A stretch of DNA of 64,000 nucleotides, from the NCBI GenBank assembly GCA_964460845.1, contig CAYWRZ010000001.1, positions 131,533-195,532 on the forward strand, given 5' to 3'. Numbering within the stretch: the first letter of the stretch is position 1; the number at the start of each line of letters is the position of its first letter. The position numbers and the translations under genes are program-made. The notes under the pieces are model-generated. The model searched no databases, had not been told where the DNA came from, and saw nothing but the letters and a program-made list of their open reading frames with translations. The stretch is from an uncultured Weeksellaceae bacterium (lineage in GTDB: Bacteria > Bacteroidota > Bacteroidia > Flavobacteriales_D > UBA2798). Positions 4,573-59,127 of this stretch are shown piece after piece.

Positions 4573-5292
4573 TCAATTACGATTGCGGTTGAGTAACGAA
4601 ATATAATACAACAAAGTTACAAGCGAAGCCATAGCCGCTACCACATAGGTCATTGCCGCCCAAAACAGGGCCTCGCGAGAGCGGGTATATTCGGCTTTGG
4701 AAGCTACTCCCGAAGCGGTAATCCAGTTAAGCGCCCTGCGGCTGGCGTCAAATTCGACCGGAAGCGTAACCAGGCTGAAAAGCGTCATGATACCGTAAGC
4801 GATAATGATCACCCAAAGCACGCTTTCCATCGGGAAGGCATCATAAAGCACGGCGCCACCGATAAAAGCCGCAAGAAACACAAAGTTCAGAATGGTTCCG
4901 CTGATGTGCTGCAAAGGCACTAAGGCCGAACGAAACTGCAGCATCGAATAGCCTTTGGCATGCTGTACGGCGTGACCACATTCGTGCGCCGCCACTGCTG
5001 CTGCAGCCGCATTGCGACCGTTATACACATCGCGGCTCAGGTTCACGGTGCGGTTGGCAGGATTGTAATGATCGGTCAGCTCACCCTCGACACTCATCAC
5101 CCTTACGTTCGAAACGCCGTTGTCACGCAGCATTTTTTCCGCTATCTCCTTACCCGAAAGGTTAGAAGAAATAGGTGTCTGAGAATACGCCGCAAACTTG
5201 GAACGCAACACCATTCCTACCAGCGTGCCTATTGCCATAAACACCAGTCCGATAATCATCACCGGACCGAAGTACAAGTCACTTATATTCAT
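4573..5292 (-). CDS. Membrane zinc metallopeptidase, YugP-like
   Basis: HECGHAVQH (HExxH) motif lies between an N-terminal TM helix and C-terminal TM helices. The architecture matches the Zn_peptidase_2 family (from memory). Confidence 0.8.
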   Translation of the reverse strand: MNISDLYFGPVMIIGLVFMAIGTLVGMVLRSKFAAYSQTPISSNLSGKEIAEKMLRDNGVSNVRVMSVEGELTDHYNPANRTVNLSRDVYNGRNAAAAAVAAHECGHAVQHAKGYSMLQFRSALVPLQHISGTILNFVFLAAFIGGAVLYDAFPMESVLWVIIIAYGIMTLFSLVTLPVEFDASRRALNWITASGVASKAEYTRSREALFWAAMTYVVAAMASLVTLLYYISLLNRNRN

Positions 5293-7653: not shown

Positions 7654-8732
7654 CAGCGGCTCAGGGAAAGGTAAAAGCGTAATGCCTCACGTATCTCATC
7701 GGCCGTACAATCACAGTCGGTACGCGGACTACCGGGATCATCCAGCAACGTAAAGCGAATGCTTCCGTCGCGGTTCTTTTTATCGTGCCGCATAATTTCG
7801 AGCAGACGGTGAAAATCAATATCATCAAACCTCCAAAAGGGGTAATGCCGGGTCAGGAAGCCGCTTATTTCTTCCAAACGGGACGAAGAAAGTTTTCCTT
7901 TTCGTTGCGAAAGCCAGCTCTCGCAGATAATACCAATCACTATCGCTTCTCCGTGCGTTAAAGGCTTGCGTCCACCTTCAAAAGACAGGCTCTCGACGGC
8001 ATGACCTATAGTATGCCCCAGGTTGAGAATTTTACGGCGATCACGCTCAAAGGGATCTTCCAGCACAATCGTATTCTTAAAATTGACCGAGCGGTAAATC
8101 AGGTCTTCCAGCTTATCCGGACGACTCAGATCGACCGATTGCACCTGCTGCCATTCTTCCACACCGGCCAGCAGCGCGTGTTTGATCACTTCTGCAAAAC
8201 CCGACATGACCTCGCGTTTGCTAAGCGTAAGCAAAAATGCCGGATCGATAAACACCGCACGCGGGTAGCTGAAAAGTCCGACCATGTTTTTGAGTCCGCC
8301 GAGATCAACTCCTACCTTACCGCCTACCGAAGCATCGACCTGCGCAAGCAAGGTGGTTGGAATATGAATATAAGGTATCCCTCTTTTATAGGTAGCGGCA
8401 ATAAACCCTCCCATATCCGAAATCACCCCCCCGCCGAGGTTCACAAAAAGGCTGTGGCGATCGGCTCCCAGTTCAGCCAGCGCTTCCCAGATACGGGTGC
8501 AGATATCTATCGTTTTACTTTGCTCACCGCTCTCTATTTCAATAAGTTCGGCCTGCTGAAATGCTTCAAACGTTTCGACCAAACGCGGAAAGCAGCTTTG
8601 CAGTGAATTTTCATCCACCAGCACAAACTTCTTCGCTTTACTGAATTCGGTGCCGCTCACTAAATCCCGGAGCGGGGAGTCGGCCAATGGGCCTATATAA
8701 ACCGGGTATCCGTCAGAGTGTAGGGTGTACAT
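7653..8732 (-). CDS. aroB: 3-dehydroquinate synthase
   Basis: ORF 7653-8783; ATG at 8732 preferred. Contains GGGVISDMGGFIAATYKRGI and LNLGHTIGHAVE, the DHQS metal and NAD motifs. Its stop overlaps the aroA start by 1 nt. Confidence 0.9.
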   Translation of the reverse strand: MYTLHSDGYPVYIGPLADSPLRDLVSGTEFSKAKKFVLVDENSLQSCFPRLVETFEAFQQAELIEIESGEQSKTIDICTRIWEALAELGADRHSLFVNLGGGVISDMGGFIAATYKRGIPYIHIPTTLLAQVDASVGGKVGVDLGGLKNMVGLFSYPRAVFIDPAFLLTLSKREVMSGFAEVIKHALLAGVEEWQQVQSVDLSRPDKLEDLIYRSVNFKNTIVLEDPFERDRRKILNLGHTIGHAVESLSFEGGRKPLTHGEAIVIGIICESWLSQRKGKLSSSRLEEISGFLTRHYPFWRFDDIDFHRLLEIMRHDKKNRDGSIRFTLLDDPGSPRTDCDCTADEIREALRFYLSLSR

Positions 8733-25354: not shown

Positions 25355-25487
25355 AATCTCTTTCTTTTTAGCGGTATTTCGTGGCCCGCAGAAGGGCCTT
25401 CTTTTCAGGAGTCCAACTCTTGTACACCTTCTTTAGCCCAAAAGAACAGCCTTATTTCACGCTGCATTTCTGTTTTTTTCGACAGGT

Positions 25488-25519
25488 GCTGTAACATTCA
25501 GTGTACCCCGGCGTCACAC
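25488..25519 (+). promoter_or_regulatory. ECF-type promoter GCTGTAAC-N16-CGTCACAC
   Basis: Both 8-mers and the 16-nt spacing are identical to the site at 57293-57324 in front of the ECF sigma gene. It ends 20 nt before the ATG at 25540. Confidence 0.7.
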
Positions 25520-25539
25520 TATCAAAACAACACGACGCC

Positions 25540-25869
25540 ATGAAAAAATTACTTATAATCTGTGCCGGCCTGCTACTCTCACTGAGTGTTTCGGCACATA
25601 CTTCCGATGTGCTTAAAAGAAAAATAAGCCGGAAATTTTCTGACATTTCCAATGTACTTCGTCCCCACGAACAATTAGAAGTTACGGTTGTATTTGCCGT
25701 AAATCAATCGGGTAAGCTGGAAGTACTGGAAAGCAGCAGTCCCGACGAACAGGTAAACCAGTATCTGCGCCAGAAGCTGGAAAGCATTTCGCTTAGTCCG
25801 ACAGCCGCAGGAGAGGTGTTCCAGTATCATTTTGTCTTCAAAAAAGAAAAAAATAACGCTCGCCTGTAA
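25540..25869 (+). CDS. Small secreted protein (109 aa), beta-alpha-beta rich
   Basis: ORF 25501-25869. ATG at 25540 gives MKKLLIICAGLLLSLSVSAHT, a signal peptide. EVTVVFAVNQSGKLEVLE ... VFQYHFVF loosely resembles a TonB-C-like fold (weak inference). Confidence 0.65.
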   Translation: MKKLLIICAGLLLSLSVSAHTSDVLKRKISRKFSDISNVLRPHEQLEVTVVFAVNQSGKLEVLESSSPDEQVNQYLRQKLESISLSPTAAGEVFQYHFVFKKEKNNARL

Positions 25870-25895
25870 CAAACCCGAATAAGAGTGCGTCACAC
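25863..25895 (+). promoter_or_regulatory. ECF-type promoter CCTGTAAC-N17-CGTCACAC
   Basis: Third copy of the motif. The -35 element overlaps the stop codon of the upstream gene. It ends 19 nt before the ATG at 25915. Confidence 0.65.
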
Positions 25896-25914: not shown

Positions 25915-26850
25915 ATGAAAACAATTACCTCGTTTATTCTTTTTGCCGGGCTACTGATGGCTCTACCTAAAGCGCAGGCCCAGGTCACTCCCGAACCACC
26001 TCAACTGGAAGAATTAGAGCCGCTTCCTCCGCTTCCTACTCCTCCTCCTTCGGCTATAGAAGTACCGATTGCGCCTCCCCCGCCGCCGCCTGTTCCTGTA
26101 GCCGATACGACCCGTCTTAAGCTGGGCAGCACACGCGTAATCATTATCGAAGAAAAAAATCGCACTACTATCGTGGAGGGCGACACCATTCAAGCACCGA
26201 AAAAAAAGAAAAAAAACCGGGGTGATTTCGGACACTGGGCCGGTTTCGACATCGGTGTAAACGGTTTCCTTACCTACGACAACCAGCTTGACCTGCCTAC
26301 CGAGGCGCGTTTTTTAGAACTGGATTACTCACGATCCCTGACTTTCAGACTGAATTTTTTGGAAAAACGCATCCGTATCATCGGTGATTTCGTGGCACTG
26401 ACTACCGGTATGGGTGTACAGTGGAACCGCTACGGACTGAAAAACAACTACGATGTTTCTTTCAACAAAGACTCCATTTTCGGGGTCGAAAATACCAGCG
26501 TTAACTACACCAAGAACCTGCTCAAAGCCACATATTTGCAGATCCCGCTGATGCTCGACCTCAATACCTCCCACAATGCGAAACGCTCTTTCCACCTCTC
26601 GGCAGGCGTTATCGGGGGCTATAAAATCACTTCACGCCTGAAAACCCGCTTCGAAGACGAAGGGAGAACCTACAAAAACAAAACCAAAGGCCATTACCAG
26701 TTTAACCCCTTTCAGGCTTATGCCACAGTGCAGGTTGGTTACGGAAAATTCACGCTTTTTGCTAACTACGGACTCACCCGGATATTTGAAAAAAACAAAG
26801 GTCCTCAGCTCTACCCTTTCACTATCGGGGTAAAAGTGATCGACTTTTAA
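25915..26850 (+). CDS. Outer-membrane beta-barrel protein with proline-rich N-terminal region
   Basis: ORF 25885-26850. ATG at 25915 gives MKTITSFILFAGLLMALPKAQAQ. It is followed by a PEPPQLEELEPLPPLPTPPPS..APPPPPPVP tract, then alternating beta-strand-like sequence ending in a C-terminal F. Confidence 0.7.
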   Translation: MKTITSFILFAGLLMALPKAQAQVTPEPPQLEELEPLPPLPTPPPSAIEVPIAPPPPPPVPVADTTRLKLGSTRVIIIEEKNRTTIVEGDTIQAPKKKKKNRGDFGHWAGFDIGVNGFLTYDNQLDLPTEARFLELDYSRSLTFRLNFLEKRIRIIGDFVALTTGMGVQWNRYGLKNNYDVSFNKDSIFGVENTSVNYTKNLLKATYLQIPLMLDLNTSHNAKRSFHLSAGVIGGYKITSRLKTRFEDEGRTYKNKTKGHYQFNPFQAYATVQVGYGKFTLFANYGLTRIFEKNKGPQLYPFTIGVKVIDF

Positions 26851-26893
26851 ACGCGCAAGTTCAGTTCTTTTCATTTGCAACAAAGTAGAGAGC

Positions 26894-26934
26894 GGGAGCC
26901 TCCGGCCGAAAGGCCGGGGGCTCCTGTATTTTAC
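26894..26934 (+). terminator. Rho-independent terminator after the outer-membrane gene
   Basis: GGGAGCCTCCGGCC-gaaa-GGCCGGGGGCTCC followed by tgtatttt. The stem is 13 bp with one G-U pair and a GNRA loop. Confidence 0.7.
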
Positions 26935-27007: not shown

Positions 27008-27625
27008 ATGAAAATTTTGGTTCTCTTTTCTTTACTGCTCTTTCCGGGGCTGCTATTGCAAAGTGCCTGTACCGAAGAAGCAGCCTCTGCACCTTCACTT
27101 ACCCTTGCCCCCGATACTACCGTCGTTACGGCTATTCCCTTTTCTTCCGGTTTCGACTATCCTGTAGGCGCACAAACCGAACCGAAGGGGTATTACCTGG
27201 CACAGCAGTTCGGAGATAATTTTCACCTGGGCGAAGACTGGAACGGCACCGGCGGGGGCAATACCGATTTAGGTGATCCGGTGTATGCCGTGTCGGAAGG
27301 GCAAGTCAGCTTTGCCGCTGATCTGCGGGGTGGATGGGGCAAAGTAGTACGTATTGTACACCTTACGGGAAGCGCTTCCGCCCCTGTATGGGTCGAATCG
27401 GTGTATGCGCACCTCGATACGATGTATGTAAAAGAAGGAGATATCGTACAACGCCGCCAGGAAGTAGGTACCATCGGTACGGCACACGGACAATACCTTG
27501 CACACCTGCATTTCGAATTACGCACCGTAAGCGGTATGCCCATAGGACCGGGATACGCAAAAGACACTACCGGCTATACCGATCCTTCGGCGTTTATACG
27601 CCGCAACCGCAAGCTTTCTCCCTGA
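27008..27625 (+). CDS. M23 family metallopeptidase lipoprotein
   Basis: MKILVLFSLLLFPGLLLQSAC lipobox. Contains HLGEDW, VYAVSEG and AHLHFE, the M23 zinc-site motifs. Confidence 0.85.
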   Translation: MKILVLFSLLLFPGLLLQSACTEEAASAPSLTLAPDTTVVTAIPFSSGFDYPVGAQTEPKGYYLAQQFGDNFHLGEDWNGTGGGNTDLGDPVYAVSEGQVSFAADLRGGWGKVVRIVHLTGSASAPVWVESVYAHLDTMYVKEGDIVQRRQEVGTIGTAHGQYLAHLHFELRTVSGMPIGPGYAKDTTGYTDPSAFIRRNRKLSP

Positions 27626-55750: not shown

Positions 55751-57076
55751 TTACCGGAACAGCTTCACGATGTCGTTGCCGTTGGCAAACAGCATGAGTC
55801 CGAGCAACAAGACCATACCGGTTACCTGAGCGATTTCCATGAAACGCTCGCCAGGTGCTTTTCCGCTGATCATCTCATAAATAAGGAACATCACATGGCC
55901 TCCGTCGAGTGCCGGAATGGGCAGCAGGTTCATAAAGGCCAAAATGATCGACAGAAAAGCGGTCATGTTCCAAAAAATTTCCCAATTCCAACTGGAAGAG
56001 AAGAGTCCGCCGATAGATCCGAATCCACCGATCTGCTTGGCACCGGCCGGAGTAAATACCAGCGCAAGCGATTTCACGTAACCGGTAAGCTTATCGTTTC
56101 CTTCGGCAATACCGGCCGGGATAGACTCCCAAAATCCAAAGGTCTCTTTACGGGTTTCAAAAAAGCGGCTGTATTCGCCCACAGGATTGGCGCCCATCTT
56201 TCCGTCGTTGTCTATTTCAATTTGCAGCGTAAGCGGTTTACCCTCGCGCACCACGTGCATAGCCACCGTTTGAGATTTGTGTTGCGCCAGTATAGGACCT
56301 ACGTCCTGAAAGAAAACACCCTGTACTTCGTTGATTCCCACAATGCTGTCGTTGGGCAGGAGTCCGCCTTTTTCGGCACCGCCACCACCGGCCACGCGCG
56401 ACACTACAAAGGGAATACGCGTATCAAACAGGTTGCGTGCATCTTTATGGAGCATTTGCTGCTCAATATCGGAGGGCAGGGTCACTTTCACAGTAGCGCC
56501 GTCGCGCAGCACTTCCATATCGCGATGCCCGTCGATCACAATCAGTCTGTTCGCCTGCTCAAGGGTTTGAGGCTTTACGCCGCCCACAGTAAGAATATGA
56601 TCGCCGTTATGCAGCAGCTCGCCCGGCTTGAGCACCTCGTGGTTTACCGCAATGCCGTATTTCGCATTTTCGACCGGCAGGTATTCGCGCCCCCAGGTCC
56701 AGAGGATAAAAATGAAGATGATATAGCCGAGAATCAGGTTGACCGTTACACCGCCCAGCATAATGATAAGTCGCTGCCAGGCCGGTTTGGAACGAAACTC
56801 CCAGGGTTGCGGAGCCTGCTTCATCTGGTTTTTGTCCATGCTTTCATCGACCATTCCGGCAATTTTCACATAGCCTCCAAGCGGCAGCCAGCCCACACCG
56901 TACTCGGTATCTCCGCGTTTTATTTTAAACAGCGAAAACCAGGGGTTAAAAAAAAGATAAAATTTTTCGACACGGGTTTTGAAAAGACGGGCAGGGACAA
57001 AGTGTCCGAGCTCGTGCAGCACCACGAGTATGGAAAGGCTCAGAATGAGCTGACCTGCTTTAACGAGAATATCCAT
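55751..57076 (-). CDS. rseP: RIP metalloprotease RseP (site-2 protease)
   Basis: Contains LHELGHFVPARLF (HExxH), a PDZ region and NLLPIPALDGGH. Confidence 0.9.
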   Translation of the reverse strand: MDILVKAGQLILSLSILVVLHELGHFVPARLFKTRVEKFYLFFNPWFSLFKIKRGDTEYGVGWLPLGGYVKIAGMVDESMDKNQMKQAPQPWEFRSKPAWQRLIIMLGGVTVNLILGYIIFIFILWTWGREYLPVENAKYGIAVNHEVLKPGELLHNGDHILTVGGVKPQTLEQANRLIVIDGHRDMEVLRDGATVKVTLPSDIEQQMLHKDARNLFDTRIPFVVSRVAGGGGAEKGGLLPNDSIVGINEVQGVFFQDVGPILAQHKSQTVAMHVVREGKPLTLQIEIDNDGKMGANPVGEYSRFFETRKETFGFWESIPAGIAEGNDKLTGYVKSLALVFTPAGAKQIGGFGSIGGLFSSSWNWEIFWNMTAFLSIILAFMNLLPIPALDGGHVMFLIYEMISGKAPGERFMEIAQVTGMVLLLGLMLFANGNDIVKLFR

Positions 57077-57292: not shown

Positions 57293-57324
57293 GCTGTAAC
57301 TTTAAGGTCGGTTCTTCGTCACAC
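57293..57324 (+). promoter_or_regulatory. ECF-type promoter GCTGTAAC-N16-CGTCACAC, probable autoregulated promoter of the sigma/anti-sigma operon
   Basis: TGTAAC-N16-CGTC matches the general ECF -35/-10 architecture. It ends 27 nt before the ATG at 57352, and the same motif occurs at 25488 and 25863. Confidence 0.7.
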
Positions 57325-57351: not shown

Positions 57352-57837
57352 ATGACCGCTGACCAATACAATGAAAGTGTAGATACCTACGCAGACCGGC
57401 TGTATCGTTTCGCCCTTAAAAACATGAAGGACGAGGAGTTGGCTAAGGATATTGTGCAGGACACCTTCGAGCGCCTGTGGATAAAAGTGCAGGAAGTGAC
57501 TTACGAAAAAGTGCGGTCTTACCTGTTTACCACCGCTTATCATGCCATGGTCGATCAGGCCCGGAGACAGAAAAAGCAGGGGCTGTATAACGAAGCGAAA
57601 GTGGCTCGCATAGGTCAGCATTCGCAGTACAGCGACCTGAAAGAAATATTGCAGGAAGCCGTGGACAAGCTGCCCGATATACAGCGTTCGGTGATTTTGC
57701 TACGCGATTACGAAGGGTATTCGTACGAAGAAATAGGTGAAATTACCGGGCTGAACGAATCGCAGGTGAAAGTGTATATCTTCAGGGCACGGAAATTTTT
57801 AAAAGAATACATCGGCAGCATGGAGGCCGTATTGTAA
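57352..57837 (+). CDS. ECF (group 4) sigma-70 factor
   Basis: 161 aa. Region 2 (DRLYRFALKNMKDEELAKDIVQDTFERLW) and region 4 (ILLRDYEGYSYEEIGEITGLNESQVKVYIFRARKFL). Confidence 0.9.
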   Translation: MTADQYNESVDTYADRLYRFALKNMKDEELAKDIVQDTFERLWIKVQEVTYEKVRSYLFTTAYHAMVDQARRQKKQGLYNEAKVARIGQHSQYSDLKEILQEAVDKLPDIQRSVILLRDYEGYSYEEIGEITGLNESQVKVYIFRARKFLKEYIGSMEAVL

Positions 57838-57843
57838 AAGACA

Positions 57844-59127
57844 ATGATGAACCTTAATCGGGATAACTACGAAAGCTTTTTCCTCGACTATATCGAGGGG
57901 CGGCTCAGCGCGCAGGAGCGGGCCGAGCTGGAAGCTTTTTTAGCGGAAAATCCCGATTTGGCGGCCACGCTCGAAGGGTTCGAAATGATTACCCTGCCTG
58001 CGCCCGACAGCAAAGCTTCGTTCGACCGAAAAGATCAGCTTAAAAAGCAAGCGGTCTTATGCCTGAACGAAGAAAACCGGGAAGACTATTACATCGCTTA
58101 CCTAGAAGATCGGCTTACTGCAGACGAACGGCTTGCCGTAGAAGCCGATGCCGCCTCGCAGCCGACTTATACGCAACTGCTGGATACTTACCGCAAAACC
58201 CAGCTCATTGCCGGCGATGAAGCTTCTGACGAGCATTTTTTCCTTTATCGCAAGCGTACACTTACTGCCCTTACACCTCAGCTACAATCGGCTGTAATGG
58301 TGGCCTACCTCGAAGGCTGGCTCAACGCCGAAGAGCGGAGCACCGTAGAAAAAGCGCTGAGCGGCAATGCGGCATTGCAAAAAGAGCTACAGGCTTACCA
58401 ACGTGCGGTAGTACCGACCGAAACCGCTGTTTTTCCCGATAAAAAGAGACTTTATCGCAAAGAAGGGCGTATCGTTCCGCTTTACTGGCTGCGTTACGGC
58501 GCGGGAGCCGTAGCGGCAGGGTTGGCGCTGTTTTTTATGCTTAACCTGCAGGGCGAAGGAGAAATTCAACACGCAGAGCAGCCGCTTCACAAACCGGTAC
58601 ATCGCAGCGACAGCCTTATTGGAATCGCTCCCGAACCCTTAGTGGCCGAACGCGAAACCTCGCAACCCGAACCTCTTATCGAACAGGCAGCCCTGAAAAA
58701 CGCCGTACCGCCACACAAAGCTGCGGGCACTCCCGCCACAGGGCCTGAAACCGTACCCTCGCAAGCCCAGCTTGCCGTACAGGAACCCACCATTCCGGAG
58801 CCGACACCTGAAGTCCCTACCCCCTCGCGAAGAAGCGACGTACCCCCCCTGCCCGGGCAGGCGATCACACAGCCCCAAACCGAAGATTTGGCCTCTAATA
58901 CCTTGAGCGACGAAAAATACCTTACTCCGAAAGAGTTCGTTACCGGTAAAATCGTAAAATCGGAAGGGCCGAACGAAGCGAAAAAATCGCTTTCGCCGGG
59001 GCTTGGTGAAAAAATTTCGGGCTTGTTCGGTCAGAAAGTGCAGGTATCGTCCGAAACGGAAGAAGACTACTCTACCTACACCGTCAGCATAGGCGGCTTC
59101 GAGTTTTCGCGAAAAAAACAGCGCTAA
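57844..59127 (+). CDS. Putative anti-sigma factor, single-pass membrane protein
   Basis: Starts 6 nt after the sigma gene. N-terminal FLDYIEGRLSAQERAELEAFLAENPDL is typical of Bacteroidota anti-sigma N-termini. One TM helix (YGAGAVAAGLALFFMLNL) and a Pro-rich extracytoplasmic part. Confidence 0.7.
   Translation: MMNLNRDNYESFFLDYIEGRLSAQERAELEAFLAENPDLAATLEGFEMITLPAPDSKASFDRKDQLKKQAVLCLNEENREDYYIAYLEDRLTADERLAVEADAASQPTYTQLLDTYRKTQLIAGDEASDEHFFLYRKRTLTALTPQLQSAVMVAYLEGWLNAEERSTVEKALSGNAALQKELQAYQRAVVPTETAVFPDKKRLYRKEGRIVPLYWLRYGAGAVAAGLALFFMLNLQGEGEIQHAEQPLHKPVHRSDSLIGIAPEPLVAERETSQPEPLIEQAALKNAVPPHKAAGTPATGPETVPSQAQLAVQEPTIPEPTPEVPTPSRRSDVPPLPGQAITQPQTEDLASNTLSDEKYLTPKEFVTGKIVKSEGPNEAKKSLSPGLGEKISGLFGQKVQVSSETEEDYSTYTVSIGGFEFSRKKQR

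Follow-up and report, generated by a model that had tools for sequence, protein, structure and literature searches.

Do two adjacent envelope genes and an ECF sigma factor operon 31 kb away from them belong to one regulon, and how far can this be read from the short motif that all three carry upstream? The initial annotation had read TGTAAC-N16/17-CGTC as an ECF promoter that unites these genes in a compact, physically split regulon. Within the window, which here means the whole 64-kb stretch of DNA that was analysed, the pattern (G/C)CTGTAAC-N16/17-CGTCACAC occurs in three copies and no others, termed P1, P2 and P3. The features on which the argument turns are as follows.

25383-25398, + strand, terminator-like hairpin, GGCCCGCAGAAGGGCC then TTCTTTT, behind the upstream gene
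25488-25519, + strand, P1: GCTGTAAC (25488-25495), 16-nt spacer, CGTCACAC (25512-25519); -35 box TGTAAC at 25490-25495, -10 box CGTC at 25512-25515, extended as CGTCACAC
25540-25869, + strand, small secreted protein gene, 109 aa, signal peptide
25863-25895, + strand, P2: CCTGTAAC (25863-25870), 17-nt spacer, CGTCACAC (25888-25895); -35 box TGTAAC at 25865-25870, -10 box CGTC at 25888-25891, extended as CGTCACAC
25915-26850, + strand, outer-membrane barrel gene, 311 aa, signal peptide, PF13568
26885-26934, + strand, GC-rich hairpin ending in a U-run; -42.3 kcal/mol, z = -8.9
57293-57324, + strand, P3: GCTGTAAC (57293-57300), 16-nt spacer, CGTCACAC (57317-57324); -35 box TGTAAC at 57295-57300, -10 box CGTC at 57317-57320, extended as CGTCACAC
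57352-57837, + strand, ECF sigma factor gene, 161 aa, sigma regions 2 and 4 only
57844-59127, + strand, putative anti-sigma gene, 427 aa, starting 6 nt past the sigma stop codon

Putative promoter copies in the window

The coordinates, spacings and distances to start codons first given for the three sites proved correct to the base. All three copies lie on the coding strand, 19-27 nt ahead of a start codon: P1 ends 20 nt before the ATG of the small secreted protein gene (25540), P2 ends 19 nt before the ATG of the barrel gene (25915), and P3 ends 27 nt before the ATG of the sigma gene (57352). They hold 15-16 bases in common, including the variable -10 extension ACAC. The second promoter does overlap the end of the first target gene, as had been noticed, with the TAA stop codon of the small gene (25867-25869) contained in the P2 -35 hexamer (25865-25870). 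The earlier impression, gained by eye, that the window holds no further copies was borne out by a two-strand search, which confined CGTCACAC to P1, P2 and P3, and by the bipartite scan. Relaxing the -35 box to GTAAC gave zero extra sites in the window, and allowing one mismatch gave a single extra site, at 4595-4621 on the reverse strand, with CGTT. That site, TGTAACTTT-N-CGTT, sits within the 3' end of a zinc-peptidase-like gene and about 100 nt before a BAX-inhibitor/YccA-type gene; carrying CGTT, intragenic and within chance expectation, it was rejected as a further regulon member.

Whether such a recurrence could be coincidental depends on which part of the pattern is counted. Taken alone, CGTCACAC is weakly over-represented in the window (3 observed against 1.08 expected, with 10 of 100 shuffles reaching 3), and the full 15-base pattern does arise by chance in very large collections. 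The bipartite pattern, in contrast, is well beyond this: TGTAAC-N15-18-CGTC is observed 3 times where 0.41 would be expected, a count that none of 100 shuffles attained. The spacer is always 16 or 17 nt long although its sequence varies, and strand and position relative to the start codon are constant. The two boxes are alike in P1, P2 and P3 but the spacers and flanks are unrelated, and the copies therefore do not belong to a dispersed repeat element; no inverted repeats were found, and an Rfam scan of the window returned no family matches.

Conservation of the motif in related Bacteroidota

To place the three sites in a broader context, we used a comparative set of 80 genome loci (1.28 Mb) anchored on barrel homologs alone. 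The records are nearly all Bacteroidota metagenome-assembled genomes, with three titled under other taxon names, and the exact window proteins are also present on metagenome-derived contigs. Across the 80 loci, TGTAAC-N16/17-CGTC was observed 108 times, whereas half-site counts predict about 3.7. On the coding strand and just ahead of sigma, barrel, GIN-barrel or small-protein genes lie 106 of these 108 sites, the same placement just upstream of genes that had been remarked on in the window. When the first downstream ORFs were clustered, with the three window sites included, only three families emerged and two sites were left unexplained; the barrel family, including GIN forms, accounts for 71, the sigma family for 24 (by ATG starts) or 30 (by blastx), and the small-protein family for 7-8. 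The motif thus stands ahead of 29 sigma orthologs in other loci and of about 70 barrel-family genes in other genomes, and it is kept before orthologous genes whose proteins are just 35-77% identical.

The 106 sites yield the consensus cTGTAAC-WWWT...CGTC-n-Y-A-Y-nnnn-AAA, with a spacer of 17 nt in 79 and 16 nt in 27. Conservation extends outside the search pattern, to the C before TGTAAC, to Y at +5 and +7, to A at +6 (99%) and to AAA at +12 to +14 (80-93%), and these extra positions are present, in full or in part, in all three window sites. Phylogenetic footprinting across the 80 barrel-anchored loci therefore supports the ECF promoter reading of the motif, and comparative genomics likewise supports a shared promoter linking the sigma operon with the two envelope genes.

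The same loci show how the genes are arranged elsewhere. In 33 of the 80 loci, the strand of the barrel gene also carries, 1.5-3 kb upstream of it, a sigma ortholog (53-77% identity), and a contiguous sigma/anti-sigma/barrel arrangement, in which the barrel gene has its own promoter copy, is likewise seen in 33 of 80. ORF maps show the sigma gene (always 161 aa) first, then the anti-sigma gene and then the barrel gene; Vicingaceae-type loci have a GIN/DUF2807 gene between the last two, and elsewhere GIN and barrel are fused. The small protein is encoded beside the barrel gene in a minority of loci only. Its homologs are preceded by the motif in L085, which shows the tandem layout of the window (promoter, small gene, promoter, barrel) with a small protein 39% identical and the second promoter in the short intergenic gap, and in L086-L088, L011, L013, L020, L021, L068, L074 and L078, where the small and barrel genes are divergent and have a motif each. 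The L086-L088 contigs also carry the gene neighbourhood of the window, with PGI, lipB, a beta-lactamase and the 134-aa gene. Judged by these gene orders, the window carries a conserved sigma/anti-sigma/barrel module in split form. The split itself, over 31 kb, is not peculiar to this genome and represents one of several recurrent layouts; compactness can be stated for the 64-kb window alone.

Several further sites illustrate variation around this theme. In L005, the closest contiguous relative, two tandem promoter copies 71 nt apart precede the barrel gene (8263-8365). In L137 (5261, reverse-complement) the motif stands before a 76-aa Cys-containing secreted ORF with the sigma gene 373 nt downstream, a further layout variant. 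In the closely related contigs L174 (10558) and L147 (1519), both reverse-complement, the full motif follows a LytTR-like response-regulator gene and lies about 134 nt before a gene for an 820-aa outer-membrane-type protein; this site may be a chance occurrence or mark a further target family. A scan of metagenomes with CTGTAAC-N16/17-CGTCACAC gave about 10 sites before sigma, barrel or GIN genes among the at least 121 listed. About 111 of the 121 matches listed are not ahead of these families, show no placement upstream of genes, lie on contigs of widely varied G+C and look like chance. The 15-base pattern therefore carries information only in the right lineage and at the right position, and the metagenome scan is silent on regulon size.

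Products of the sigma operon and of the predicted target genes

The 57352 product scores 46.2 bits against Sigma70_r2, for which the cut-off is 24, and 68.4 bits against Sigma70_r4_2, with a cut-off of 25.7. It contains no sigma-70 regions other than 2 and 4, which makes it an ECF type, as initially annotated, and it is the one ECF sigma gene detectable within the window. Ahead of it, TGTAAC-N16-CGTC presents the ECF (group 4) self-promoter layout of AAC and CGT 16-17 nt apart. Its best NCBIfam model is NF058625 (GFO_1088 / PG0214 family), whose cut-off of 130 bits it misses with a score of 127.1; six sigma orthologs score 112-129 bits, also below the cut-off.

The gene that follows encodes a protein with one transmembrane helix (residues ~215-233) and a Pro-rich periplasmic part beyond it. 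Its HMM match to zf-HC2 is sub-threshold (18.4 bits against a cut-off of 22.2), and its match to PRK13920 has E = 1e-7 yet falls far below the cut-off. From position, topology and these sub-threshold matches, we regard it as a putative anti-sigma factor. Position is conserved: orthologs lie directly behind the sigma ortholog in all six of the related loci in which ORFs were read, and in 32 of the 33 sigma-holding loci tblastn detects an anti-sigma match behind the one for sigma. The cytoplasmic N-terminus (residues 1-205) comprises three tandem repeats of 60-70 aa each with the motif NYExxFLDYxEGxLS...EL..FL..NPDL, related to one another in pairwise BLAST at E = 1.6e-10, 3.4e-8 and 1.8e-5; the orthologs have two or three copies each. 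Such a triple sigma-binding-like module would be unusual for an anti-sigma factor. At the opposite end (59040-59127), ortholog alignment reveals a conserved TxxFS(V/I)GxFGFSR motif followed by a K/R-rich stretch and preceded by a long, variable, Pro-rich periplasmic linker, and this C-terminal motif is a possible docking strand for a partner in the envelope. Next to the operon, a gene for a site-2 protease (Peptidase_M50, RseP-like; 55751-57076, reverse strand) is divergent and 275 nt upstream. An RseP-like gene was not found in any of the 80 related loci; a role as conserved anti-sigma protease partner was therefore rejected (0/80), and the adjacency is treated as coincidental.

The first of the two envelope genes fits its description as encoding a small secreted protein, with a 109-aa product and a signal peptide, and this product is probably periplasmic. 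Its structure model (pLDDT 84.8) finds TonB C-terminal domains as its top PDB matches, weakly (E = 0.014-0.2, TM ~0.45-0.55). A profile comparison with PDB sequences gives another weak match (E = 0.07), and some members of the small-protein family match Pfam TonB_C, TonB_2 and DUF4891 below threshold. These data suggest that the fold is probably TonB/TolA C-terminal-like. A word-indexed homolog search with the protein returned itself alone, and an exhaustive HMMER search of 1.8 billion proteins returned 16 representatives, a small divergent family. The family is not always associated with the promoter. In L089 (1259-2501) and L090, three tandem small-protein paralogs (108, 116 and 119 aa) occur and no GTAAC...CGTC motif was found at them, so that control by this sigma factor does not extend to the whole family.

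The second envelope gene was described as encoding a proline-rich outer-membrane beta-barrel protein, and both parts of this description hold. The product matches PF13568 (OMP_b-brl_2) at 36.3 bits against a threshold of 27, and AlphaFold2 predicts a small beta-barrel from residues ~105-311 with pLDDT mostly above 90, for which OmpA, Ail and OmpX are the nearest solved folds. Residues ~17-102 form a flexible, Pro-rich arm modelled at low confidence. On this arm lies a DTT motif (DTTRLKLG....VIII) that is universal in the barrel family, with D64 and T66 invariant and T65 and G71 nearly so, modelled as a short beta-hairpin with pLDDT below 50. The TonB box has the form DTxxVTA, which the DTT arm loosely resembles. 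In the public gene call (P0001, 321 aa) the barrel gene starts at GTG 25885, 3 bases before the P2 -10 box and overlapping it; this codon precedes the -10 box, and a P2-initiated transcript would therefore lack it. Homolog alignment and promoter position agree in favouring ATG 25915 (311 aa) as the better start.

The two genes appear to form a unit with its own boundaries. The terminator-like hairpin at 25383-25398 would insulate it from the upstream gene, and the hairpin at 26885-26934 is a likely intrinsic terminator closing it, missed by a consensus terminator scan because its U-run is interrupted. Directly past this terminator, a Peptidase_M23 lipoprotein gene (27008-27625, + strand) lacks the motif and probably lies outside the regulon.

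A probable small envelope regulon and its alternatives

Taken together, these data suggest that the sigma operon and the two envelope genes 31 kb away form one regulon governed by a three-promoter ECF switch, a reading to which we assign a probability of roughly 85%. The putative single-pass anti-sigma factor, whose gene follows the sigma gene by 6 nt, would hold the sigma factor inactive at the inner membrane until an envelope signal inactivates it, freeing sigma for RNA polymerase. The holoenzyme would then start at cTGTAAC(W3T)-N16/17-CGTCnYAY promoters; both the reading of the motif by the 57352 sigma factor and the positions of transcription starts are inferred from sequence. P3 would drive the operon of the sigma factor itself, giving positive autoregulation. 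P1 would drive the small TonB-C-like protein and probably read through into the barrel gene, since the gap separating the two leaves no room for a terminator, while P2 would be the barrel gene's own start, so that the barrel would have two inputs (P1 and P2). The leaders would be short, about 12-20 nt, as is usual in Bacteroidota. The predicted output is a small outer-membrane barrel with a flexible periplasmic N-terminal arm together with a free periplasmic TonB-C-like domain. On this evidence the system is a real yet fairly ordinary small stress-type regulon.

Among described ECF groups, ECF120 is the candidate home group, since promoter and context match its published description. ECF120 is restricted to Bacteroidetes, with a predicted self-promoter TGTAACAAA-Xn-TCGTCAT, a one-helix anti-sigma at +1, GIN/DUF2807 and DUF4252 neighbours, and a barrel at +2 in two subgroups; its only studied member is P. 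gingivalis PG0985 (10.1101/2019.12.11.873521). The relatives of our system are likewise nearly all Bacteroidota, P2 reads TGTAACAAA...GCGTCAC, and the barrel-after-anti-sigma context recurs in 33 of the 80 related loci. Unlike ECF120, the window has its barrel gene 31 kb away and an RsmB-type methyltransferase gene after the anti-sigma gene, and DUF4252, which is the most frequent neighbour in ECF120, was not encountered. The ECF120 description covers the promoter before the sigma gene and the neighbourhood only, and does not report a copy belonging to the barrel gene (10.1101/2019.12.11.873521).

The P. gingivalis cluster PG0214-PG0218 offers a second point of comparison, comprising an ECF sigma factor, hypothetical exported proteins and two paralogous barrels, which are co-regulated in RNA-seq (PMC11018363, PMC13227078). 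For the window protein and six orthologs, no sigma family scores higher than NF058625, the family of PG0214; all of the scores (112-129 bits) fall just under the cut-off of 130, and these proteins are therefore better placed in a sister clade than as certified members. The cluster is one operon, whereas the targets in the window are split off from the sigma operon, and a small TonB-C-like member is not described for it. ECF03 and ECF21 were rejected as home groups, their predicted promoters (TTAAACC-Xn-TC and GCAACC-Xn-CGTCT, respectively) not fitting (10.1101/2019.12.11.873521). ECF21 resembles our system as a Bacteroidetes ECF system that links a one-helix anti-sigma with an outer-membrane barrel, the two being separate, at +1 and +2, in some subgroups (10.1101/2019.12.11.873521). 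It differs from ours, which has a TGTAAC promoter, an anti-sigma and barrel that are always separate, and a barrel gene with its own promoter.

At the level of general design, the predicted system, with an autoregulated ECF sigma factor, a single-pass anti-sigma and envelope targets, recalls more distant examples. Autoregulated ECF sigma factors with single-pass anti-sigma factors and envelope-protein targets are familiar from the E. coli sigmaE-RseA and FecI-FecR-FecA systems, and in Fec the outer-membrane protein, with its periplasmic N-terminal extension, is both sensor and target. Unlike these systems, ours has no RseB/RseC, no FecR domain and no TonB-dependent transducer, and its barrel, unlike that of Fec, has a small OmpA/OmpX-like fold. 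ECF21 and FecIRA are functional analogies only.

A rival reading makes the barrel, and perhaps the small protein too, part of the sensor and not an output alone, with feedback across the envelope. In such an arrangement the periplasmic N-terminal beta-hairpin of the barrel protein would contact either the C-terminal motif of the anti-sigma factor or the TonB-C-like protein. The conserved sigma/anti-sigma/barrel linkage is compatible with this, although a barrel that is purely a target accounts for the linkage equally well. Also in its favour are the invariant or near-invariant residues on a disordered Pro-rich arm of the barrel protein, and the long Pro-rich periplasmic linker of the anti-sigma factor that ends in a conserved FS(V/I)GxFGFSR-type motif; the hairpin, however, is a low-confidence part of the model. 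Strand addition is how TonB C-terminal domains bind partner strands, and such domains are the best fold matches of the small protein, but this protein accompanies the barrel gene in a minority of loci, while every member of the barrel family has the DTT motif. ECF21, a related group, has its anti-sigma fused to an outer-membrane barrel (10.1101/2019.12.11.873521). On balance, we consider a sensory role of the barrel unlikely. Its fullest form would be a trans-envelope device in which the DTT hairpin, bound by strand addition, couples the state of the outer membrane to sigma release; here the partner of the hairpin may be the anti-sigma C-terminal motif or the free TonB-C-like protein, and the three anti-sigma repeats may set the stoichiometry of sigma capture. 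This device is a speculative proposal that we hold to be quite unlikely.

A different challenge to a single regulon is that P1 and P2 might be read by an ECF paralog encoded outside the window, their identity with P3 reflecting family-wide specificity and not a private regulon. Paralogs are plentiful, with about 22 ECF sigma factors per genome on average in Bacteroidetes (PMC7826278), and at least two classified groups, ECF120 and ECF275, have promoters of the TGxAAC...GTC type (10.1101/2019.12.11.873521). At least two such candidates, PG0214 and PG0985, exist in P. gingivalis, and in 47 of the 80 loci the sequence around the barrel gene holds no sigma gene. Against this, the barrel genes of the other 33 loci stand immediately behind orthologs of exactly the 57352 sigma factor, with the same motif; the window sites are alike over their full 15-16 bases, down to the variable -10 extension; and no second sigma-like gene was found in the window. 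We therefore regard control by a paralog as improbable. Chance, a dispersed repeat or a regulator-binding site unrelated to sigma recognition is barely credible as the origin of the shared sequence, and is effectively refuted by the comparative data.

One regulon read by the 57352 sigma factor thus remains our preferred reading. It overturns no expectation, an autoregulated ECF sigma factor with a few envelope targets being the textbook pattern, and its novelty is modest: the barrel gene would be a direct target through its own promoter copy, the TonB-C-like small protein an occasional regulon member, and the promoter would have an extended consensus deployed in several recurrent layouts, the 31-kb split of the window among them. 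One gene start is corrected, from GTG 25885 to ATG 25915 for the barrel gene. For one uncharacterised Bacteroidota ECF sigma factor, these data define a regulon with an extended consensus, three or four target families and their layouts. They also tie an uncultured lineage to the PG0214-PG0218 cluster of P. gingivalis, which suggests that the barrel proteins of that cluster are direct sigma targets. Only a sensory role of the barrel would make the system of greater interest.
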